Assembly (NCBI GenBank): GCA_002793515.1
Contig: PFEU01000018.1
Span: 32,203 to 96,202 of the forward strand
Reading direction: 5' to 3'
Length of the DNA stretch: 64,000 nt
Source: Candidatus Uhrbacteria bacterium CG10_big_fil_rev_8_21_14_0_10_48_16
GTDB taxonomy: Bacteria > Patescibacteriota > Patescibacteriia > UBA9934 > GWF2-40-263
The notes under the pieces are model-generated. The model was not told the origin of the DNA and did not search any database. It was given only the letters and a program-made list of their open reading frames with translations. How positions within the stretch are numbered: the first letter of the stretch is position 1; each line of letters begins with the position of its first letter. Position numbers and translations under genes: made by a program. Positions 5,737 to 55,990 of this stretch are shown here, piece by piece.

Positions 5737-6732
5737 CTACTCGTCTTCGAACTCCTCGGGGTCCTCAATCTCGACGATCGGGGACTTCGTGTGATGTCCT
5801 CGCCGAGCGAGTTCTGCCAGATCGACGGGCTTGAGGTCGACGAGATCCGGAGCGGCCATCATGGTGAGACCTTCTCCACCACCTTCCCGCAGACCCGCCA
5901 TCAGATTCTGGAGCGGATCCAGACCGAGGTTGGTGTGCCCTACCCGATCGAGGTCGTAGCCGAAGTCCCTGAGCTGACCAGAGACGAAGGCGTCCTGTGC
6001 GTACGTCGCCTTCCAGAGGCTGTGCAGGAGCTCGCCGAAGTACGTGTCGACGATCGTGATCAGCTGATCCCAGTGATCTCCGCCCGATTCCCACGGATCC
6101 ACCTCGGGGATGGGTTCGGTGGGCATGGTGGGATCTGAGGAGTATCCATGCTCATGCAGGTAGTGCTTGATCTTGGCGAATGGCCAGTTCTTGGCCTTCC
6201 ACATGTCCCATTCGTGGTGAAGTCGGGACGTAGAACTTCCCCGGGTGGGAAGCACTCCACGAACGCCTTCCTTGGTGACAACACCCATCATCTCGACGAA
6301 GGTTCCCTCGCGAGGAGGAGCGAGGACTGAGAGAGCTTGGCAACCCTTCTTGAGCCGACCGCTCGCGTCGTAGCGAACGTCGAGGCCTCCCTCCGCACTC
6401 GGAACGAACTTCGGGGCGGGCACATCGAGCGCACCCATCATGGTTCGGTTTATCCTCTTGGCGAAGAGACGCCTGAGGGTCGTCTCCGTGGCCGGGCTGA
6501 CCAGGAATTCCCAGCGGTCGGTGATGATGCCGGGGGTGATCTCCTGCTTCGTGACCGTCAGGCGGACACTCAGCGTGGCGGGAACGAGGAGCCCTCCGGG
6601 CTCCAGTCGGACCGTTCCGATTCCGAGCCTGCGGGCGAGATCGAGATCGTACTTGATCTCCTTTCGCCCACTGGATGCCTCGACCTGAGGTCGAAGCGAG
6701 ACCCTTGCGATGTGAACGGGGGGTTGAGTCAT
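5737..6732 (-). CDS. hypothetical protein, GC-rich insertion (about 60% GC vs about 46% backbone)
   Basis: Long ORF with strong coding periodicity. The ORF-track start at 6753 is a TTG. A canonical SD (GAAGGAGGTG) precedes the ATG at 6732, so MTQPPVHIARV... is the likely N-terminus. No family recognised. Confidence 0.5.
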   Translation of the reverse strand: MTQPPVHIARVSLRPQVEASSGRKEIKYDLDLARRLGIGTVRLEPGGLLVPATLSVRLTVTKQEITPGIITDRWEFLVSPATETTLRRLFAKRINRTMMGALDVPAPKFVPSAEGGLDVRYDASGRLKKGCQALSVLAPPREGTFVEMMGVVTKEGVRGVLPTRGSSTSRLHHEWDMWKAKNWPFAKIKHYLHEHGYSSDPTMPTEPIPEVDPWESGGDHWDQLITIVDTYFGELLHSLWKATYAQDAFVSGQLRDFGYDLDRVGHTNLGLDPLQNLMAGLREGGGEGLTMMAAPDLVDLKPVDLAELARRGHHTKSPIVEIEDPEEFEDE

Positions 6733-6780
6733 GTGTTCACCTCCTTCGCGCAAAATTTAAGCATAAATAGGAAACAAAGT

Positions 6781-30091: not shown

Positions 30092-32146
30092 CTATGATCG
30101 TTTAACACCAAAAAGGATTGGTTTGCGCATCCCCTTCCAGAACAACAGCGACTTCAGATAGACACGTGAGACGGTGATGGCCGTGAACATGCTGAGAATC
30201 ACACCGATCGACAGTGTAAGAGCAAACCCTCGAATAAAGCTAGAACTGAACCAATACAGAACTCCAGCAGCAATCAGCGTCGTAATGTTTCCATCACGAA
30301 TGGCCGTCCATGCCCGCTTAAATGCCTCATCAACCGCAGAGATAAAATCCCGGCCAGAGGCATACTCTTCCTTGAACCGTTCAATAATGAGCACGTTTGC
30401 ATCAACCGCAATTCCAAGGGAAAGGACGAGACCCGCAATCCCAGCCAACGTGATCGTCACACCGAACAGGCGATACGCGGCCAAGTTCAGGAACGCAAAG
30501 AGGATTAACGCGATCATCGCAACAAGACCAGGAAGCCGGTAGAAGGCCACCATATAAAGACCGACAAGCAAGAACCCAAAAAGGGCTGCAACAATACTCT
30601 TCTCAAGCGAAACTGATCCAAGTGTTGGTCCAACGGTTTGTTGAGAAAGAAGGTCCACAGGCACAGGAAGAGCTCCTGCATTCAAGCGTTGCGCCAAGAG
30701 TTTCGCTTCTTCCACGGTAAAATCTCCGGTGATGACCGCTCGTCCGCCGTAAATGGCTTGTTGAACTACCGGCGTTGAAATCGCTTCTCCATCCAGGAAG
30801 ATAGCGATCGGCTCGCCCACATGTTCTTCCGTGAGTTGCGCAAATAACTCTCCCCCTTCTGTATTGAACGTCAATGCCACATAGGCCCCACCGGTGTTTT
30901 GATCGAACTCAACACCTGCTCGCTCAAGATACTTTCCAGATAATTCTGTATTGATCCATGGGGATGGGGCTGGAACGATGTCATAAATATCACTCAGTGG
31001 CATGAGAATCCTCTGAATGGTGTACGCAGGGGCGGTCCGTTGATCGCTCTTATAGATCAAATGATATCCAAACTCTGTGAGGACCGGACTCGAAATCTCT
31101 CCCACCTCCAATCCACCAGCAGCAAGTCCAAACGATGCCACGTAGCGGTCAGCGGTAGACCATCCAAGCTCCCCGCTATTGGAAAGAACAGATGGGTCTG
31201 TTGAATATTGCTGAGCAAGTTCTGCGAAGTTTTCTGCCGTGACCTGCTCTTTTACCTCATTAATCTGAATGGATGCCTCAATTTCTGAAATACCACTTGT
31301 ACATCCAGTCGTGCCCTCAAAACAAATGAGGATGTGCGATAGAAGCATTTCTGTTTGTTCTCCGGCACTCAAGTATTTGAAAACACTGACTCCATCATCA
31401 TTCTCCAATAAGTTCCCGTTCACCTGTCCTGGATAGAGTCCCCGTTGCTGAATCAAAACGAAGTAATCAAAGAAGTAGGAATCCGCCGTAATGTTCTCAA
31501 AAATTCCCTTTGAGACATCCTTATCTTTCTCGATACTAAACTCAGAAACAAGCGCATCGAAATCCTCTCCCGCAAGGGCACGGCTCAACACCGTATTTGC
31601 AATGGCGCGTTCTTCTATATTGCGTGTCTCAAGAAGAGCGAGCTCTTCTTCTGTTGGATCTTCTTCAAGCTCCTGTCCAGGCTCCTTAAATTCAAGAACA
31701 GGCGTTTCTCCAATCAGATCAATGGCATCAGACACATCCAACACTCCTGCGAGTTCAATAATGATGCGATAGGTTCCTCCGGTGGTAGTTGTCTGCACAA
31801 CCGGCTCAGACACACCAAATGCATTGACTCTACGCTCAATCACATCACGCACGCCCTCAAGGGCCTCAACACGATCTTCCTCAGGAATCTGAGACATGTC
31901 TGCTTCGTAAATGAGATGTGTCCCCCCTTGAAGGTCAAGACCGAGTCTAAATGGCTCCTCAGAAACCGTTGGTGGAAGCCAACCTGTCTTTGCTTGAACA
32001 AACTCCGCCCCCTGATTCCATACACCAGGAAACCCATAGAACCCCATGACCAGGGTTGCGATGAGTGCTACGACAGCAAAAAATCGAGGTTTCCACGTGC
32101 TTGGCTGAACTTTTTTTATCTTTTTCTTTAATTTCCAGGTTTGCAT
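30092..32146 (-). CDS. secD: protein translocase subunit SecD with an inserted PpiC/parvulin-type PPIase domain
   Basis: SecD N- and C-terminal TM bundles. The periplasmic region contains SHILICFEG...SNSGELGWSTADRYVASFG...ISSPVLTEFGYHLIY, matching the parvulin His/GxLGW/GYH signature. Confidence 0.8.
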   Translation of the reverse strand: MQTWKLKKKIKKVQPSTWKPRFFAVVALIATLVMGFYGFPGVWNQGAEFVQAKTGWLPPTVSEEPFRLGLDLQGGTHLIYEADMSQIPEEDRVEALEGVRDVIERRVNAFGVSEPVVQTTTTGGTYRIIIELAGVLDVSDAIDLIGETPVLEFKEPGQELEEDPTEEELALLETRNIEERAIANTVLSRALAGEDFDALVSEFSIEKDKDVSKGIFENITADSYFFDYFVLIQQRGLYPGQVNGNLLENDDGVSVFKYLSAGEQTEMLLSHILICFEGTTGCTSGISEIEASIQINEVKEQVTAENFAELAQQYSTDPSVLSNSGELGWSTADRYVASFGLAAGGLEVGEISSPVLTEFGYHLIYKSDQRTAPAYTIQRILMPLSDIYDIVPAPSPWINTELSGKYLERAGVEFDQNTGGAYVALTFNTEGGELFAQLTEEHVGEPIAIFLDGEAISTPVVQQAIYGGRAVITGDFTVEEAKLLAQRLNAGALPVPVDLLSQQTVGPTLGSVSLEKSIVAALFGFLLVGLYMVAFYRLPGLVAMIALILFAFLNLAAYRLFGVTITLAGIAGLVLSLGIAVDANVLIIERFKEEYASGRDFISAVDEAFKRAWTAIRDGNITTLIAAGVLYWFSSSFIRGFALTLSIGVILSMFTAITVSRVYLKSLLFWKGMRKPILFGVKRS

Positions 32147-32260
32147 AGAGAAAAAATATAACGGCGGTAGTGTATGCGATTGAAGGCTTGATCGCAAGTG
32201 GACAACCATTGACGAAGTTCTCTGTAAATGATCTGATAGCCCCTAACCACGGGAGAAATC

Positions 32261-33550
32261 ATGCCATTGTTCAGCCCGGACAGGTGGGTGTATGACCCAC
32301 GCCATCCAGCGACAGTGCTGGATCAGCTCCCGAGGGAGCTCTTTCCACACACGACCACCGCAGATCTCATCGCACACCTTCGTATGGGCGGTGGAAAGTC
32401 CCTCGGGCTTTCCCTGTGTGAGATTCTGACGCACGGATCGGAACACTTCCGCGTCCCAGACTGGCTCTCGTTGCCTGGAACCTATGCGTGGCACCAGCCA
32501 ATCCCTGCCACAACTCAATGGCTCTCTAGCAGAGAGGGTCAACTCAAGGTCCGTAGCTCGACTCGACGGGAAGACTGGCTCACAGGTCAGAGCGGTGAAC
32601 AACACTCGAGGACCGTGAAGGATCTCACGCGAGCACTCCACCATGCGAGCGAGGTCTCCGGTGGGCAACACCCAGTCGTCCTTCAGGATTTTGTCGAAGG
32701 GATCGGGATCGTCGTCGACCTCGCCTACAGCCAGATCCTGGGACAACCGATTGCTCGGGTCTCGACGGGAAGAGAGTGGAAACGCGATTGTGGAGAGCAA
32801 ATCTTCACGTCCGCCACACGGGATCACGAAGGCAGACACGAGATCATCGACCCAATCAGCGGAACCTATCTTCTGGACCGCACAACGGGACATCTCTTCG
32901 AAGGGTCGTGCCTAAGACTTCCTCTTCAGGAGATCGTTGGCGAACTCTGGGAACGCGTTAACGCATTCGGTATCACCTTCGGGGTGCAGTGCGAAATCGT
33001 GGTTCATCCAGACGCTCCAGAAATCTGGTGGCTTGTCCAAATCCGACCCTCCCCTGATCGAGTCCGATCCCACGGGATCAACCTGGAACCCCTTCCAGGG
33101 GCAATGATCACGACCCCTGCAGTGAGTCGAGCGTTCGACCATCGTGGGCTCGCGACCTGTACCACCCCCGAGTCATACACCTGGTTGTTCAACGCATCAA
33201 CCGGAGGTATCACCGACACCATCGAGAGAGAGGGGTGGGAATTCCGTCCCTCAAACATCCTTATCTGGCACAAAGATCCAATCCCTGACTTCGACTCCTG
33301 GATGCTTGAGATGGCATTCACGGTCGGGGTGAAGGTCCAGATCACGAGACGAGTGATCGTCATCAGTACCACCCATAGTGGAATCAACGCACGCGTCCTC
33401 ATGCCCGAACAAAGCGATGTCACCTCACTCGGAGGAATCATCGCCGTCCCTGACGGGCTCCATGACCAACTCGTGCATGAGCTCCAAGGACAGGACAAGG
33501 TCATTCACGCGATCTCCGACGGTCTCGTCGGACAAGTCGCACTCCTCTAA
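32261..33550 (+). CDS. stand-alone PPDK_N / PEP-utilising enzyme ATP-grasp (nucleotide-binding) domain protein; GC-rich insertion
   Basis: MGGGKSLGLSL...KVRSSTRREDWLTGQSGEQ matches the GGK...VRSSAxxED...AGQ signature of the PEP synthase/PPDK N-terminal domain; no phospho-His or PEP-binding domain; about 61% GC. Confidence 0.55.
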   Translation: MPLFSPDRWVYDPRHPATVLDQLPRELFPHTTTADLIAHLRMGGGKSLGLSLCEILTHGSEHFRVPDWLSLPGTYAWHQPIPATTQWLSSREGQLKVRSSTRREDWLTGQSGEQHSRTVKDLTRALHHASEVSGGQHPVVLQDFVEGIGIVVDLAYSQILGQPIARVSTGREWKRDCGEQIFTSATRDHEGRHEIIDPISGTYLLDRTTGHLFEGSCLRLPLQEIVGELWERVNAFGITFGVQCEIVVHPDAPEIWWLVQIRPSPDRVRSHGINLEPLPGAMITTPAVSRAFDHRGLATCTTPESYTWLFNASTGGITDTIEREGWEFRPSNILIWHKDPIPDFDSWMLEMAFTVGVKVQITRRVIVISTTHSGINARVLMPEQSDVTSLGGIIAVPDGLHDQLVHELQGQDKVIHAISDGLVGQVALL

Positions 33551-33608
33551 ACCCATTTCTGGGTTTTTTTCTTTCTAAAAACCACTGGATGATTCCAGTG
33601 GTTTTTCT
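33549..33608. terminator. tandem hairpins AAACCCA-tttc-TGGGTTTTTTT and AAAAACCACTGG-atgatt-CCAGTGGTTTTT (bidirectional)
   Basis: Two perfect stems with U-tracts between convergent genes. Confidence 0.6.
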
Positions 33609-33609
33609 C

Positions 33610-34494
33610 TTACCAAGAACTGCTTGCCCCTCCTCCTCCGGAAGATCCTCCTCCAAATCCCCCTCCACCACCGAATCCTCCTCCAGAAGAACTTCCCCCA
33701 CCCGAACTCCACCAACCTCCCCCACTCCGCTTTCTTCCTTTTGGAAACGTACTGACCGAAAGAATCTTATGGAGAAATAAGGTGAACGGCACATTAATCA
33801 CCCAGGCAATCCAATCATTTCCAACACTCAACAACAAGAAAAAGGCAAGGATGGGAAGAATGGGAAATTTCTGGATTCGCGTTCGAAGATCTCTCTTAAG
33901 TGAGGCGTAAATAGCAGAGATAAAAACGAACATGAAATAGACGATAAATCCCACAACAACACTCGCAATGAAGACGGAATCCTCTTCCTCCTCCAAGGGT
34001 TGTGCGAACCCATACTCATCAGCTTCTGCTTGAATTTCTCGCGTGAGCTCATCAATGGAAAAATTAATCCCCATCTCATAGTCTCCCTCTTTGAAGTACG
34101 GAATGGCAATGGCATTCAAAATGGCAATCGAGTCTGCGTCTGTGATACGCCCCTCAAGACCATATCCTACCTCAATCCGTGCGACTCGATCCTCATACAC
34201 CACAAGGAACAACACGCCATTGTCTGATTCGTTTTGTCCAATCCCCCACGTACGAAATACCTCATTTGCATAAGACTCTAGATCTTCATCCTCAAGCGTA
34301 TTGATCGTGAGAACCCCAATTTCAGCTGTGGTCACTTCTTCCAATTGTGTAAGTTTTTGGATGAGCTCTGTTTCAAATTCAGGAGATAAAATTTCCGCCT
34401 GATCTAACACATACTCCTGAGGGGCGGCTGGAACGTTGAGCGCAAAAACCTGCAACGGAAGAAAAAGGAGCACGGCGACCAAATAGCGTTTCAT
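33610..34494 (-). CDS. TPM-domain protein (TLP18.3/Psb32/MOLO-1 phosphatase family) with a Gly-rich tail
   Basis: Signal peptide; TPM core (LTINTLEDEDLESYANEVFRTWGIG...GVLFLV...RIEVGYGLEG); C-terminal GGGFGGGG low-complexity. Confidence 0.75.
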   Translation of the reverse strand: MKRYLVAVLLFLPLQVFALNVPAAPQEYVLDQAEILSPEFETELIQKLTQLEEVTTAEIGVLTINTLEDEDLESYANEVFRTWGIGQNESDNGVLFLVVYEDRVARIEVGYGLEGRITDADSIAILNAIAIPYFKEGDYEMGINFSIDELTREIQAEADEYGFAQPLEEEEDSVFIASVVVGFIVYFMFVFISAIYASLKRDLRTRIQKFPILPILAFFLLLSVGNDWIAWVINVPFTLFLHKILSVSTFPKGRKRSGGGWWSSGGGSSSGGGFGGGGGFGGGSSGGGGASSSW

Positions 34495-35469: not shown

Positions 35470-36672
35470 CTAAGGATCTAAACGAAGAGTCGGTTCACCC
35501 GTTGGAGAAGGATCATCAAATTCATACTTATCAGGCCAATTGGTTTTCGAACGCAAGAGACGCAAGAGATTCCGTGACGTTTCATCTCCCATAAATTCAG
35601 GTTCAGAACTAAGCTCGATCCGATCCGTGATTCCAAGAATTTTTGCAATACCATTCACGGTCCTTTCGAAATTCACGGCATTGAGCAAATCACTCACCTC
35701 TCTTCGATCAACCCACGTTCGGTAATCACGCACTCTCTCTACCGCCTTTCGCGCCCCAGTCCATTCATTCCTTGCATAAGGATCAAGGAATACATATTTC
35801 CATTCTCCCGTCTCATCTTTATAAATACGGACATTCCCCCCTCCTGCGAGATCTAACATCTCATGTGATTTGTCCGTAAATGCAATAATCTTTTGGATCA
35901 ACTCTTTAAATACACGTGCAAGCTTTGGATCGGTTTTCGCTTTTTCGATAAGTCGAACCGTTCCTACATGGAGGAAGCGAGAAAAGAGCTTAAAGTCTAT
36001 TTCCCCTTCAGCCGACTGTATCATTTGATTCAGTCGTGCATAATCGGCGGGAGCGATATTAAACCGTTCAACATATCGGAAACCCAGGGAATGCGAGTCT
36101 GGATTCTCTCCGTCTTCTTTTTCGTTTTTCGCCATCTCGGGTATAGGTTTTTGATATCGAATAATGGTTGGAATCAATACAGGCTCTTTCGGAGCATAAT
36201 CCTCCAATTCCAGCTCCTGTAAAACCAATCGAGTAATCTCTGGAGTAACAGGAACATCTCGAATCACACCTCGAGATCTTAAAATGGTCTCTTTTGGAAA
36301 AAACCGTCCGAGTTTCCGGAAGAACGCTCGTTCACGCGCAAGACCATCCTCCATGTGCTCCCGGTCAAGACGCGCGTCCTCTATCCGATTCTCCTCTTGT
36401 ATCATTCTGTCTACAGGGTCGGGATTCAAATAGTCACGTTGAGCAAGAGCCTCTCTGATAATCCCTCTGCGAAGAAAATGCATCTGCGCTTTTATTAGAA
36501 GGTCTCGGTACGCTCCTTCCTTTCCTTCTTTTTGCTTCACACGAAAAACAATATGTTCCCCTCCAGAACCTGCAAACTCAAGTTCCCCAAGTCCAGGTTG
36601 TTTGCTTCGTTCTTCCGTATACGTTCTCGCAACCTCAGGGATACGTTCAATAAGTGGTCGTTCTTCGCTCAT
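35470..36672 (-). CDS. hypothetical protein with possible protein-kinase-like fold
   Basis: Gly-rich loop GSGGEHIVFRV, LLIKAQ (VAIK-like Lys), HEMLDLAGGGNVRIY (HxD...N catalytic-loop-like), FLDPYA (DFG-like). Motif-level inference only. Confidence 0.35.
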   Translation of the reverse strand: MSEERPLIERIPEVARTYTEERSKQPGLGELEFAGSGGEHIVFRVKQKEGKEGAYRDLLIKAQMHFLRRGIIREALAQRDYLNPDPVDRMIQEENRIEDARLDREHMEDGLARERAFFRKLGRFFPKETILRSRGVIRDVPVTPEITRLVLQELELEDYAPKEPVLIPTIIRYQKPIPEMAKNEKEDGENPDSHSLGFRYVERFNIAPADYARLNQMIQSAEGEIDFKLFSRFLHVGTVRLIEKAKTDPKLARVFKELIQKIIAFTDKSHEMLDLAGGGNVRIYKDETGEWKYVFLDPYARNEWTGARKAVERVRDYRTWVDRREVSDLLNAVNFERTVNGIAKILGITDRIELSSEPEFMGDETSRNLLRLLRSKTNWPDKYEFDDPSPTGEPTLRLDP

Positions 36673-43259: not shown

Positions 43260-44576
43260 CTAGCGCAGGATGGGGTGTATGCCGTGGGTGTTCACCGTGC
43301 GTGATACCCAGGTCAGGATCTGTTCGTCATGGACCGTGGTCCACACGACTCCTCCGTCGGAATCCATGTGGAGGTTCCAGGCAAGGGGAACTGCCGTCCC
43401 TCGATGCCCGCGGAAGTGTGGGACGTCGTAGATACCTTCGTGTTGGATGTGGGCTTGGATGCGACCATCGTTGCCGAGAAGGACCTCACGGACCTCCGTT
43501 CCAGCCGTTGGTGTCCAGTCGACGTTTGAGCCGACGAATCGACTCGTCGCGAAGCGTCTGCGAGCAGGATCCTGGATGATTCCTGCGACGACAGACAGTT
43601 CGTCTGGTGACCAAGCGACGGTTGCGGGGTCCAGGGTGAAGGACCCTTCGTGGATGACTTCCCCGGTACTGAGCGTCAGTCGACGCACATCCGGAGATGC
43701 TCCGCGGGGATGCGTGAGCATCAGGAGCGTTCCCCCCTTGGGAGAGGACCACACGCCGTGGAACTCCCCATCGATTGAAATCCGTTCAGGCTCTTCGCCG
43801 AACGCTCGACGGTTGAGCTCGACGAGCCAGGACTGCGTCCCGCGGTTGACCGCGAGCATCAGTCGGCCCTGCCAACGGACGAGCCCTGCTGAACGCTGAG
43901 CGTCCCCAGGGTTGACCTGAAGGAAGGAGGTGGCTCCGTGCTCCGTAGCCTGGTAGGCGTAGAGAAGCCCACCGAATGACTCAAGCACACACAGCGTGTC
44001 TTCTTCGCAGACGCGCACGGTTGCCCAAGCATCGACCGGCCAAAGTCCCCACGAGGTGAGGTACAGCTTCTGACCGGGATGCTGTGCAGACGTTCCGACA
44101 GGAACGCGGTTGGGCCGTGGGCCCACAGCGAATTCCAGTCGATCGAGTCGGTGAAGGAACTGACTTGCGTCTTGCGTGAGACGCCAGACTCCCGGCGGAT
44201 GACCTTCCACCCTTCCCCAGACGAGGAGGTCTTCACTCCCCACCCTGAGGATCCGTGTCCCACTTGCTCCCGGCCCGAAGGGACTAAGGAATGCGGGACC
44301 CACCGGACCGAAGGTGGAGTGATAGACGCGCTCGCCAGCAGGATAGGTGCGAATGACTTGTCCGATGAAGAGACCACAGGAACTTGCAACGAGCTGATCC
44401 CCGGAGATCAGCTGAAGAATTCTCAGCGGGGTAGCGGTCTCTGGGATATCGCCGACGCGGATCATCTCCCCCGTGAAGTCGGGGGTGTTCATCCGTACGA
44501 CGTGACTCCGGGGAGGAATCGTGGATTGATGCACGGGAACCTCCATTCTCAGTGGCACACAAGATCGTGTGGTCAT
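43260..44576 (-). CDS. hypothetical protein, GC-rich insertion (about 62% GC)
   Basis: 438-aa ORF with Trp/Gly-rich repeats suggestive of a beta-rich fold; no motif recognised; followed on its transcript by the hairpin GCGCcGACC-aaaga-GGTCtaGCGC plus U-tract at 43236-43270. Confidence 0.4.
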   Translation of the reverse strand: MTTRSCVPLRMEVPVHQSTIPPRSHVVRMNTPDFTGEMIRVGDIPETATPLRILQLISGDQLVASSCGLFIGQVIRTYPAGERVYHSTFGPVGPAFLSPFGPGASGTRILRVGSEDLLVWGRVEGHPPGVWRLTQDASQFLHRLDRLEFAVGPRPNRVPVGTSAQHPGQKLYLTSWGLWPVDAWATVRVCEEDTLCVLESFGGLLYAYQATEHGATSFLQVNPGDAQRSAGLVRWQGRLMLAVNRGTQSWLVELNRRAFGEEPERISIDGEFHGVWSSPKGGTLLMLTHPRGASPDVRRLTLSTGEVIHEGSFTLDPATVAWSPDELSVVAGIIQDPARRRFATSRFVGSNVDWTPTAGTEVREVLLGNDGRIQAHIQHEGIYDVPHFRGHRGTAVPLAWNLHMDSDGGVVWTTVHDEQILTWVSRTVNTHGIHPILR

Positions 44577-52665: not shown

Positions 52666-52973
52666 GTCGTTCCTTCCTTATTTTAGTTTTTTGACTAAAT
52701 TCAACGTACAACAATTAGGCCCGTATGTCAATCGAACGAGAGGAAAGACTGATTTAAAATAACCCATAATATAAGGAGAAAGCGATATGTTCTGTGCCTT
52801 CCATCTAAATTCTGTACTGGAAACTGCAAGCCTGAGGCGGTAACATAGATTTGTTGTGATGTGAAACTAATGCTCCAAACCTTCACGCCTTTCAATTGTT
52901 TTTTGCACAACAAAGGGATACACGGTTTGGGTCTCAGTTCAGGTCTCACCCCTCCGTAAACCATTCGAGATTC

Positions 52974-53010
52974 ACTGCAAACGACATTAGACAATTATCG
53001 CGCGTTAAGC
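52974..53010 (+). repeat. partial attC-like site 0 (ACTGCAAACGACATTAGAC...GTTAAGC) upstream of the first cassette ORF
   Basis: Shares the ACTGCA...(A/G)(A/C)(C/T)(G/A)TTAG(A/C)(C/T) pattern with sites A-C; GTTAAGC fits GTTRRRY. Confidence 0.25.
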
Positions 53011-53042
53011 GAAACAAGTGTGAACATCATATAATTCGATCT

Positions 53043-53822
53043 ATGTTTGGATTACTACGTTTTGAATATTACCTAGCAGGCAGACAGCTATGGTTTAGTA
53101 AAGCTGGACACTTATACTCTCCAAAACTAATGCTTGGCTATGCAATTGAGACAAGTCTTAAACATGGCCTTTTAATTATTGAGGATGCAGGAGTCAGCTT
53201 GGACCAAGATGCAAAAAGTATCCGAGGTAAAAGTCATGATTTAAAAGAGCTACTAAGCACATGTGTTAGATATAATCTCTTCTCAACAATAGATACTTCG
53301 GACGACTTTTTGGACTTTGCTACCAAAGGACTCAACAGCCGATATCCAAAACATATACGAGATAATTTTGATGAAGCTAGCAACAGAGATCCTTATTTAC
53401 TCACAATTAATGTTGGAGAAACTATAGGATACTATGATGATTTAATGCTCAAACTTGATGATGAAATCTGGTCTATAACAAATAAACCAGAATTTTCTGT
53501 TGGATTTCGTGGATCATCACAGGCAAGTTCAGCCACAGGGAAAATATTTTTTCATTGTAACCTTCCTGCAATGCAGAGACTTAAAAAGTACCATGCAACC
53601 GTATCAGAACATAGATCTCATCACGTTAGTGATATTGAATCACTGAATAAGGGGGAGGAATTTTTGTGGAAATATGAAGACCGGTCAACGATAAGTAAAT
53701 CTACTTCTTATGACTCATCAACATTCAAATATAAAAGTGTTGAAGAGACAGAGATTACACTTCACGATGGAACTAAAATTATTGATTATGGTCCGCAACT
53801 AAAAATGTGGTTTCACATTTAA
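53043..53822 (+). CDS. cassette ORF A: hypothetical protein (AT-rich island)
   Basis: 259 aa from MFGLLRFEYYLAG...; the track ORF begins at 52896 but would cross attC-like site 0; no SD; about 35% GC. Confidence 0.4.
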   Translation: MFGLLRFEYYLAGRQLWFSKAGHLYSPKLMLGYAIETSLKHGLLIIEDAGVSLDQDAKSIRGKSHDLKELLSTCVRYNLFSTIDTSDDFLDFATKGLNSRYPKHIRDNFDEASNRDPYLLTINVGETIGYYDDLMLKLDDEIWSITNKPEFSVGFRGSSQASSATGKIFFHCNLPAMQRLKKYHATVSEHRSHHVSDIESLNKGEEFLWKYEDRSTISKSTSYDSSTFKYKSVEETEITLHDGTKIIDYGPQLKMWFHI

Positions 53823-53826
53823 CTAC

Positions 53827-53883
53827 GCCTAACACTGCATATCCAAAATACTAGCTACTTCGGATCATGCAGAAACGTTAGAT
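53827..53883 (+). repeat. attC-like site A (57 bp): GCCTAAC-ACTGCATATCC...GGATcATGCAG-aaac-GTTAGAT
   Basis: The ends match the integron attC core consensus (RYYYAAC and GTTRRRY) exactly; the internal imperfect palindrome CTGCAT-ATCC / GGAT-c-ATGCAG carries one unpaired base. Confidence 0.5.
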
Positions 53884-53915
53884 ACCATACACCTTACCAA
53901 TTAAAGAAGAAAAAC

Positions 53916-54410
53916 ATGCAGGATTTACTCGAACAAATAGAAAAAGGGCTTGAGGCTAATCTTTATTACTTATCACTTTTTGTAGCCTTGGCTATTCCAG
54001 ATATATGTGGAGCAATTGACGCATCGGATGGCGAAGCTTCAAAAGCAAAATATATAAAATGGTTCGATGAACACTTACAAACCAAATATAGCACTTCGTT
54101 TAATGGTGAACTTTGCTATTATTTTAGGTGCTCGCTTCTTCATCAAGGTTCATCTCAACATTCGAAAAGTAGATACAAACGAATAATGTTCATTGAACCA
54201 GACAGAAGCATAAGAATTCATCGAAGTATTATGAATGATGCTTACTTCATAGACGTAAAAGACTTTTGTAATGATATGGTCGAAGCCTGCAAAGGATGGC
54301 TGCAAAAAGTGGAAACGACACCTTTATTCCAAACAAATTCTATTAAATTTATAATGCGTTATCCTCAAGGCCTCAAACCTTATGTTAGCGGAGTTCCAGT
54401 AATCGGCTGA
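53916..54410 (+). CDS. cassette ORF B: HEPN-like protein (Rx4H motif)
   Basis: 164 aa; N-terminal helix LYYLSLFVALAIPDICGAI and ...YYFRCSLLHQGS containing R-x4-H as in HEPN RNase domains; motif-level only. Confidence 0.4.
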   Translation: MQDLLEQIEKGLEANLYYLSLFVALAIPDICGAIDASDGEASKAKYIKWFDEHLQTKYSTSFNGELCYYFRCSLLHQGSSQHSKSRYKRIMFIEPDRSIRIHRSIMNDAYFIDVKDFCNDMVEACKGWLQKVETTPLFQTNSIKFIMRYPQGLKPYVSGVPVIG

Positions 54411-54416
54411 CACAGC

Positions 54417-54503
54417 ACTTAACACTGCATAAACGGTTACGCTTCATTTCTTTCCGCTTCGCCCATATTGATTCGCAACATCAGATATACGCAGACGTTA
54501 GCT
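54417..54503 (+). repeat. attC-like site B (87 bp): ACTTAAC-ACTGCATAAACG...ATATACGCAGAC-GTTAGCT
   Basis: The 5' end matches RYYYAAC; the 3' GTTAGCT is one mismatch from GTTRRRY; imperfect palindrome CTGCATA / TACGCAG with an extra G. Confidence 0.45.
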
Positions 54504-54608
54504 AAACTATCTCTTTTCTTTTTTAAACCATCCCTCCTTCACTAAGACTATAACAAACAAATACCAAATTATTTAAAAACTTAGTGAACGTCTTTTTTTA
54601 TCAATAAT

Positions 54609-54991
54609 ATGATGAAAGTAGAGTTTAAAAAATCTAAATTGCATGGCATTGGTATTTTCGCCATGGCTGATATTCAAGCTGATGAAATTATTGAAATCTG
54701 TCCAATAATAATGTTGAATGCAAAAGATACAAACGAGATCGATAAAACACATTTGTATGATTATTATTTCAGTTGGAGAGAACAAGGTTCTGCAATTTCT
54801 TTAGGATATGCTCACTCTATAATCATTCTTACGAACCCAATGCTAAATACGATAAAGATTTTGTAAACAATCGGATTGTTTTTACATCAGTTAAAACAGT
54901 TAAAAAGGGCGAAGAAATTACTGTGAATTACAATGGAGATCCTGATAAGAAAGAAAAGGTTTGGTTTGAAAAATCAGAATTGAATAGCTAA
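54609..54991 (+). pseudogene. cassette ORF C: SET-domain lysine methyltransferase interrupted by a +/-1 frameshift near 54808-54815
   Basis: Frame 1 gives the N-SET part (KSKLHGIGIFAMADIQADEIIEICPIIML...); the downstream frame gives LYNHSYEPNAKYDKDFVNNRIVFTSVKTVKKGEEITVNY, the NHSCxPN/ELxxxY SET core. The two halves overlap in DNA at ...ggatatgctcactctataatcat..., consistent with a single-base indel. Confidence 0.6.
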
Positions 54992-55053
54992 AGTGAACTC
55001 CAAGCTTGCTCCGTTTCACTCTGCAAAACACCGCAAATACTGAAATGTTAGCT
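54986..55053 (+). repeat. attC-like site C (68 bp): AGCTAAAG...CTGCAAAACACCGCAAATACTGAAAT-GTTAGCT
   Basis: The 3' end GAAATGTTAGCT is nearly identical to sites A (GAAACGTTAGAT) and B (AGACGTTAGCT); the 5' AGCTAAA pairs with the 3' TTAGCT. Confidence 0.4.
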
Positions 55054-55311: not shown

Positions 55312-55899
55312 CTACCCGTTGGCGTCCGCCTTGCTGGGAGCGTCGTGCTCGGCGAGGACGTCGTCCCAGGTGCTGAGGAAGATCTCGCCCATGTCGGGTC
55401 GGTAGATCAGGGCGTGCGTGGTCCAGAACTCGAGCGAGTCCTGGCGCTCGTTGGTATCGGGCTTGGTGTTGCACGGCTCGTTGGGAGCGATCACGCCCGG
55501 GTAGCAGGTGACGAGCATGAACTCATCAAGGAAGACCTTCTTGCCATCCTCCCACTTGAACTTCGGCTGAACGACGACGACCAAGGTCGAGACGTCCGGG
55601 ATGCTGTTCGTCGGGAGGAGGAGGACTCGACTGGGGCCCTTGCGCGGGCCCCGACGGACGAACTGGAGCTCCTCGTTGGTGTGAGAAGCGAGGGTGGTGA
55701 CCAGCGTCGCCGGAGCGATCGACCGGCCCATCTGGACCTCGAAGGCCTTCTTGTCCGTCACGTTGGTCAGGTCGAGTCCCCCGATGCATCCCTCGAAGAG
55801 GACGACCAGGTTCTCGTCTCGTGCCCAGTACTCCTGGGCGTTGGGGTAGGGAAAGACGGATGAACCGTCACGGGTCGTGTAAACGTCACCGAGAGGCAT
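55312..55899 (-). CDS. hypothetical protein, GC-rich insertion (about 62% GC)
   Basis: Likely start is MPLGDVYTT preceded by the SD GGAGGG; the track start at 55971 overlaps a terminator hairpin; followed on its transcript by the hairpin CGCGCCCCG...CGGGGC plus U-tract near 55200-55250. Confidence 0.35.
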   Translation of the reverse strand: MPLGDVYTTRDGSSVFPYPNAQEYWARDENLVVLFEGCIGGLDLTNVTDKKAFEVQMGRSIAPATLVTTLASHTNEELQFVRRGPRKGPSRVLLLPTNSIPDVSTLVVVVQPKFKWEDGKKVFLDEFMLVTCYPGVIAPNEPCNTKPDTNERQDSLEFWTTHALIYRPDMGEIFLSTWDDVLAEHDAPSKADANG

Positions 55900-55950
55900 G
55901 AAGCCCTCCTGTCCTCGACCAGGGATTGGCGAGAGACAAACCAAGGTATC

Positions 55951-55990
55951 AAAAAACAGGCCCTTTGTCAATGCATAGGCCTGTTTTCTT
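55951..55990. terminator. bidirectional terminator ACAGGCC-(15 nt loop)-GGCCTGTTTTCTTT
   Basis: 7-bp GC-rich stem with T-tracts on both strands, downstream of the ABC exporter. Confidence 0.5.

Follow-up and report, generated by a model that had tools for sequence, protein, structure and literature searches.

A divergent ATP-grasp and swivel-domain protein encoded beside secDF in an Uhrbacteria genome, a probable minimal dikinase

An open reading frame (ORF) at 32261-33550 on the plus strand of a 64,000-nt stretch of DNA from an uncultured, ultra-small member of Candidatus Uhrbacteria, a Patescibacteria lineage (contig PFEU01000018.1, assembly GCA_002793515.1; the whole stretch is called the window here) encodes a protein of 429 aa, in which an ATP-grasp domain is followed by a swivelling domain with a nearly invariant histidine, His372. 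The explanation that we favour, and that we regard as reasonably probable, is that this protein belongs to the phosphoenolpyruvate (PEP)-utilising dikinase superfamily as a minimal and highly divergent form that joins an ATP-grasp to a His372 swivel domain, serves an acceptor in trans and has been vertically inherited. By analogy with characterized dikinases, it probably moves phosphate from ATP to its own histidine and from there to a separate target. The genomes of Patescibacteria are tiny, and a substantial fraction of their genes lacks an assigned function; on this reading an orphan family of about 105 clusters with no Pfam model gains a concrete, testable biochemical identity as a minimal ATP-grasp plus phospho-histidine dikinase.

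Two domains and a conserved histidine

The AlphaFold 2 (AF2) model of the protein, made from an 18-sequence alignment (pLDDT 86, pTM 0.86), consists of two contiguous domains, an ATP-grasp (aa 1 to ~280) and a swivel domain (aa ~281-429), with a linker of about 20 residues; the sole poorly modelled segment is 372-389. The model begins with a long helix that bears the GGK motif, and there is no Rossmann-like N-domain. Foldseek confirmed the ATP-grasp fold. Ddl proteins were the top matches, RPH gave the longest alignment among single-module matches (351 columns), and we judged the domain nearest to the nucleotide-binding domain of PPDK, PpsA or RPH.

In the N-terminal domain GGGK occupies aa 43-46 and KVRSSTRREDWLTGQSGEQ aa 96-114, and the catalytic motif set of PPDK_N domains is present in order: the GGK lysine K46 (codon 32396-32398), VRSS..ED from R98 to D105 with the acidic pair E104/D105, G-x3-[ST] as G112/S116, the glutamate at the Mg-binding position, E245, and QxRP at Q260-P263, with Q142 as a further feature. 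Across 90 family members this set is conserved at 84-100%, with D105 and P263 at 100%, K46, R98, G112, Q142, E245 and R262 at 99%, Q260 at 98% and S116 at 84%. Because G45, K46, R98, S100, D105 and G112 are 96-100% conserved, the motifs are beyond chance, and the GGK and VRSS..ED signature that an earlier, sequence-only reading had seen in this ORF is borne out.

For comparison with known enzymes, the references were E. coli ppsA and twelve diverse plasmid-borne genes for PpsA, RPH-like and split PPDK_N/PEP-utiliser proteins. A family hidden Markov model (HMM) from the 90 full-length members fell in register with 11 of these 13 sequences (per-sequence P 7e-7 to 3e-3), placing GGK on GGK, VP on VP, VRSS..ED on VRSS..ED and E...VQxRP on (D/L)xE(W/F)...VQxRP. 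With hhalign, the N-domain matched the PPDK_N alignment at P 5.8e-4 (score 34.3), compared to P 0.29 (score 15.5) for the reversed-template control, and the full-length profile was collinear with PpsA residues 1-490 over 361 columns (P 0.0075; control 0.22). Every profile alignment puts the same residues of the protein on known catalytic ones, and these are the family's most conserved residues. On these alignments, they are the predicted counterparts of RPH Lys22, Arg117, Thr136, Glu297 and His825, the first four of which have roles at the ATP phosphates and Mg2+ (PMC4844700). The hhalign statistics are weak by HH-suite standards, and the profile aligned to a single PpsA sequence gave a match of 33 columns (E 0.059); collinearity appears only with reference alignments built from the plasmid-borne genes.

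The C-terminal part, residues ~281-429, has in the AF2 model the swivelling beta/beta/alpha fold of phospho-histidine swivel domains. His372 (codon 33374-33376) lies here, inside the family motif N-[ST]-x-H-G, and is 99% conserved in the 90 members. Three separate hhalign profile alignments place it on PpsA H421, with P-values of only 0.0075-0.059. The C-domain aligned to the PEP-mobile domain at P 0.025 versus 0.63 for the reversed control, and the three alignments pair ILIW (333-336) with PpsA DVLV, VQIT with AIVT, IIAV with PAVVG, and SDGLVGQV, which contains the SDGxVGQ motif at aa 419-425, with EGDTGYVY. His372 is a putative phospho-carrier.

The domain also departs from the canonical form. 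The GGxTSH motif with its helix HAAIxAR is not found, the family having N-[ST]-x-H-G, and the roughly 20 residues after the histidine (372-389) form a variable loop with pLDDT below 50 that replaces the canonical helix. A 30-residue helical insert lies within the domain at aa 303-324. The ATP-grasp and swivel domains are contiguous in the model, with no RPH-type rifampin-binding domain between them, and the swivel runs to the last residue, 429, leaving no PEP/pyruvate TIM barrel (PF02896). The sequence-only reading was therefore correct that the PEP/pyruvate-binding domain is absent, but mistaken in describing a stand-alone PPDK_N protein that lacks the phospho-histidine swivel.

Its assignment to the PPDK_N/PEP-utilising ATP-grasp proteins stands as to a dikinase-type ATP-grasp and the missing PEP domain, but not as to Pfam membership. 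Neither PF01326 nor PF00391 matched the protein or any of 18 homologues even at E<=10, and PF02896 was likewise without a match in these sequences; the earlier reading had itself counted a missing PF01326 match as evidence against it. Since there is no significant match, we do not claim PF01326 membership. The proposed comparison of a structure model with RPH and PpsA upheld the ATP-grasp fold and its resemblance to that of RPH, although Ddl led the Foldseek matches and a swivel domain was found as well.

The 18 homologues came from a word-indexed search (26-100% identity, all without Pfam domains), and the named ones belong to Candidatus Uhrbacteria or 'Patescibacteria group' metagenome-assembled genomes. 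An exhaustive profile search of 1.84 billion representatives yielded 105 clusters at 50% identity, nearly all of 400-490 aa and matched end to end. Homologues of the protein are full-length at 420-450 aa and are not PpsA fragments from misassembly, an outcome that the earlier reading had said would count against it. An NCBIfam scan of the protein gave no match, and neither phmmer with the protein nor hmmsearch with the 18-sequence profile found anything relevant in the PDB. There is no paralogue within the window, no relative was found in viral contigs, phage records or plasmids, and our literature searches found no description of the family in Patescibacteria. A new Pfam or NCBIfam model could be built from the family.

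Descent and base composition of the gene

The gene lies in a core chromosomal region (AlaRS, MurJ, BacA, SecDF, SecA, MurB, MurC, SHMT, FolD, DnaB and a ClpB-like protein) and is the sole plus-strand gene within a long run of minus-strand genes. It occupies the same site in 13 distinct loci of related genomes, divergent from secD, which encodes a SecD-PPIase fusion; beyond secD the order is secF, DUF8128, a TraG/VirD4-like gene and bacA, and in most of these loci the gene is convergent with a TPM-LemA-DUF1294 operon. Pairwise identities are about 32-57% for the protein versus 63-83% for SecD, with the same sister pairs (Spearman 0.55, p 6e-4), which points to vertical inheritance and a higher rate of evolution. 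The gene has no flanking repeats. The fixed site, the congruence with SecD and the absence of flanking repeats do not support a recent horizontal acquisition, and judged from these comparisons the gene appears to be vertically inherited, fast-evolving and lineage-specific in Uhrbacteria-like Patescibacteria. More distant members of the family (P0017, P0018 and P0064) have other gene contexts.

One of the related loci, L033 (CAZIDX010000001.1), is labelled 'uncultured Gammaproteobacteria bacterium' and has the same TraG-like/DUF8128/secF/secD synteny with the gene in place. Its SecD is 71% identical to that of the window, and its taxonomic label is probably wrong.

The base composition of the gene is unusual. 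Its GC content is 57.4%, compared to 46% in both 5-kb flanks, and its GC content at third codon positions (GC3) is 0.64 versus 0.46 in secD. The excess in the window copy is specifically in C at third positions (C3, 0.40 versus 0.20), at the expense of T. However, GC3 of the gene exceeds that of secD, secF and DUF8128 in 9/9 loci compared, by 9-35 points (0.67 versus 0.32 in L027), and an excess found in every orthologue is not a sign of recent arrival. In these genomes, recent horizontal transfer thus cannot be read reliably from a local GC anomaly. The sequence-only reading had taken the gene for a singleton, likely horizontally acquired, and had proposed a check of neighbourhood conservation in homologues; the secD-divergent position conserved in the 13 loci contradicts it.

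Three other ORFs in the window, all on the minus strand, have a similar composition: 5737-6753, 43260-44576 and 55312-55971 (338, 438 and 219 aa, no Pfam match). Their GC is 61-62%, GC3 0.66-0.84 and C3 0.39-0.51, against a C3 of ~0.20 in housekeeping genes, and 2/3 are Lys-poor like the protein described here. They are unrelated in sequence to one another and to it.

Proposed mechanism, relatives and competing explanations

By analogy with PPDK, PpsA and RPH, we infer a catalytic cycle with dikinase stoichiometry. Mg-ATP would bind the ATP-grasp domain through contacts with K46, R98, S116, E245, Q260 and R262. The swivel domain would then dock, and His372 would attack the beta-phosphate to give AMP and pyrophosphoryl-His, from which the gamma-phosphate would leave as inorganic phosphate. 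Finally, the swivel would swing out and phosphorylated His372 would give its phosphate to an acceptor outside the polypeptide, either another protein or a trans-bound small molecule.

The closest known parallel is VadK (Rv1127c) of M. tuberculosis, which consists of ATP-binding and His domains only, autophosphorylates with Mg-ATP at His422, and has partner enzymes as its proposed targets in trans (PMC13400623). VadK has the same architecture as the protein studied here, an ATP-binding and a phospho-His domain without the PEP/pyruvate domain. It is, however, a 490-aa, recent and recognisable PPDK derivative of actinobacteria whose gene adjoins methylcitrate-cycle genes, whereas our family, known from sequence and model, has about 430 aa, lies beyond the reach of Pfam, has its named members in Patescibacteria and adjoins secDF. 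This unannotated family is most aptly seen as a new and very divergent form of the VadK-like dikinase with its two domains. That a layout without a substrate domain can function has been shown only lately, for VadK; its presence in another, very distant lineage suggests that phospho-His charging by free-standing modules may be a recurring solution.

Other dikinase-type enzymes differ more. RPH of L. monocytogenes (PDB 5hv1/5hv6) has a rifampin-binding domain of ~430 residues between its modules, which our protein lacks, and RPH-like reference proteins are 860-950 aa long; PF01326 and PF00391 are undetectable in our protein, and GGxTSH plus helix gives way to N-[ST]-x-H-G plus a flexible loop. 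Compared to PpsA and PPDK, the C-terminal TIM barrel (PF02896) is missing, the ATP-grasp is shorter by about 60 residues, and the helical insert in the swivel domain is an addition. In split dikinases such as HpeHI the modules function as separate polypeptides (PMC12167813). HpeHI and phenylphosphate synthase have the swivel fused to a substrate-binding domain, whereas here it is fused to the ATP-grasp, and no HpeH-like partner is present near the gene.

Some distant relatives carry additional domains. In P0057, P0059 and P0093 (L025), a fold search found the dikinase-like module joined to an N-terminal domain of the RHG histidine-phosphatase fold; a PDB profile search with this extension returned nothing useful. 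PADLOC, Pfam and NCBIfam scans of the protein, its homologues and these fused relatives gave nothing informative except a sub-threshold His_Phos_1 match for P0057. Kinase-histidine-phosphatase fusions are known in PFK-2/FBPase-2 and PPIP5K/Vip1, but the three relatives have as their kinase module a dikinase-type ATP-grasp with a swivel His, and their phosphatase is N-terminal; the window protein has no such domain. P0080 and P0088 have a different N-terminal extension of ~250 aa, and P0064 has a C-terminal extension of ~230 aa. By eye the latter (DLNN..., IIDD) seemed HAD-like, an idea that we dropped as it had no Pfam support. None of the partner domains of the fused relatives (His-phosphatase, the P0064 C-terminal extension and the P0080/P0088 N-terminal extensions) turned up when the window was searched for them.

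The distant relative P0018 (326 aa, L013 1379-2670) has no N-terminal part, and since a 118-aa ORF overlaps it on the upstream side, the gene may have been split or frameshifted. A gene for a Ser/Thr protein kinase lies immediately upstream of P0018.

The fused relatives lend themselves to a more speculative extension, which we think rather improbable: the family may be a phosphorelay module that has escaped recognition and has to date been seen in candidate-phyla-radiation bacteria; in it, an ATP-driven carrier with a phosphorylated swivel His would charge the active-site nucleophile of a separate histidine-phosphatase/mutase-type or other protein. If so, priming or regulation would run from His to His in a system separate from the phosphotransferase system (PTS) and from two-component systems, and the C3-rich codons and rapid evolution at a fixed site by secDF would reflect a special expression or selection regime.

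Three competing explanations were weighed against a minimal dikinase with its acceptor in trans. The protein might instead be an ATP-grasp carboxylate-amine or peptide ligase of the Ddl, RimK or RiPP (ribosomally synthesized and post-translationally modified peptide)-ligase type, in which a PA-like or swivel-like C-domain is non-catalytic and the histidine is structural or binds substrate. Ddl does head the Foldseek matches, but the motif set, with its N-terminal GGK, VRSSxxxED, GLGE-like STGRE and E..QxRP, is that of PPDK_N, and it is collinear with PpsA and RPH-like proteins and not with reversed controls. The missing Rossmann-like pre-ATP-grasp domain ahead of the fold likewise argues against a ligase, as does the combination of ATP-grasp and swivel, a dikinase hallmark; we consider a ligase unlikely. 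It is a little less likely still that the protein is a self-contained ATP pyrophosphatase, sensor or pseudo-enzyme, a regulatory switch with no dedicated acceptor in which phosphorylated His372 is cycled or hydrolysed, or nucleotide is merely bound. Such a role would suit a protein with neither a substrate domain nor a conserved partner gene, whose sequence outside the motifs evolves fast, and there is a precedent in RPH mutants that keep ATP pyrophosphatase activity without transferring phosphate to substrate (PMC4844700). However, the strict conservation of the full catalytic set and the His in about 100 clusters argues for complete chemistry, and the histidine-phosphatase fusion in relatives suggests a phosphorylated product or partner.

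The explanation we give the least credence, and think very improbable, is that of the sequence-only reading, a stand-alone PPDK_N kinase (ATP-grasp only) whose direct substrate is a small molecule or protein and whose gene arrived recently by horizontal transfer. Its motifs and ATP-grasp fold are real, and the GC excess and the lone plus-strand orientation speak for transfer. Against it, the ~150 residues after the ATP-grasp have the swivel fold, with the conserved His in register with the PpsA catalytic His; and the shared site, the divergence congruent with SecD, the GC3 excess in every orthologue and the absence of flanking repeats and of phage, plasmid or viral homologues all argue against recent horizontal acquisition.

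Expression signals and neighbouring genes

The gene has its own putative promoter, Shine-Dalgarno (SD) sequence and terminators and is divergent from secDF (Table 1). The 114-bp spacer between it and secD (32147-32260) contains an intergenic block of ~55 nt shared by nine loci (the window, L001, L004, L005, L007, L009, L027, L031 and L033) and better conserved than the coding sequence of the gene itself. Its pattern is CGGCGnTAGTGTA-17 nt-TCGCAAGTGGACAACCnTTGAC(A/G), and the 17-nt spacer on the secD side is exact in 9/9 loci, the window included. The likeliest reading of the block is a back-to-back pair of sigma70-like promoters, a predicted one for secD on the minus strand and another for the gene on the plus strand. 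The latter is placed by conservation and scores under threshold in a consensus scan: TTGAC(A/G) is kept in 7/8 orthologous loci compared, with a T..GAT-like hexamer 17 nt downstream. The conserved GTGGACAACC amid the -35 elements could be an operator. We rejected an RNA hairpin for this block, as the apparent stems have no covariation and the exact 17-nt spacer fits promoters better; an Rfam scan of the window gave no match.

Table 1. Coordinates of the gene, its domains and its putative expression signals, with the adjoining secD (window numbering)
Feature	Position	Strand	Basis
Coding sequence, two-domain dikinase-like protein	32261..33550	+	ORF; homologues; AF2 model
N-terminal ATP-grasp domain, PPDK_N-like (aa 1 to ~280)	32261..33100	+	
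C-terminal swivelling beta/beta/alpha domain (aa ~281-429)	33101..33547	+	
Putative promoter of the gene: -35 TTGACG 32209-32214, 17-nt spacer, weak -10 TCTGAT 32232-32237	32209..32237	+	
SD-like GGGAG, 5 nt 5' of ATG	32251..32255	+	
Back-to-back divergent secD promoter (predicted): -35 TTGCGA 32197-32192, 17 nt, -10 TACACT 32174-32169	32169..32208	-	
Conserved GTGGACAACC block separating the two -35 elements	32198-32207		
Intrinsic terminator hairpin (33549-33566) plus T-run, starting inside the stop codon	33549..33573	+	
Strong bidirectional terminator hairpin, common to the convergent TPM-domain gene	33577..33606	both	
SecD with inserted PPIC-type peptidyl-prolyl isomerase (rotamase) domain, aa 284-390	30092-32209	-	

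GGAG(G)-type SDs are found at the equivalent position in orthologues. The first terminator hairpin has a folding energy of -7.4 kcal/mol (z -3.75). The second, with -18.9 kcal/mol on one strand and -18.6 kcal/mol on the other (z about -6.3 to -6.4), is equally stable in either direction and hence a bidirectional terminator that the convergent TPM gene also uses. Thus, the earlier description of a GC-rich gene with its own SD and dual terminators holds. The start of the longest secD ORF (32209) overlaps the promoter block; translation probably begins instead at Met22 (32146), for a product of 684 aa like the orthologues.

Directly downstream of secDF, the segment 24400-29189 (minus strand) encodes bacA, a TraG/VirD4-like coupling-protein ATPase with zinc ribbons (745 aa) and a DUF8128-like protein (580 aa), and this cluster is present in every related locus long enough to cover that flank. 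The DUF8128-like protein had no match in the Pfam scan of the window; its orthologues carry PF26449. On the other side, the TPM gene (33610-34494, minus strand) contains at 33631-33700 a repeat with a 15-nt period that encodes a Gly/Ser-rich C-terminal tail (GGGSSSGGGFGGGGGF...). Between DUF1294 and Maf, a 400-aa ORF (35470-36672, minus strand) without a Pfam or PADLOC match has counterparts of 39% identity at the equivalent position in L009 and L032. Farther away, the GC content falls to 34-36% at 53000-55000, against ~47%, in a segment that includes the plus-strand ORF 52896-53822 (GC3 0.28, no Pfam match) and is possibly a foreign or AT-rich island.
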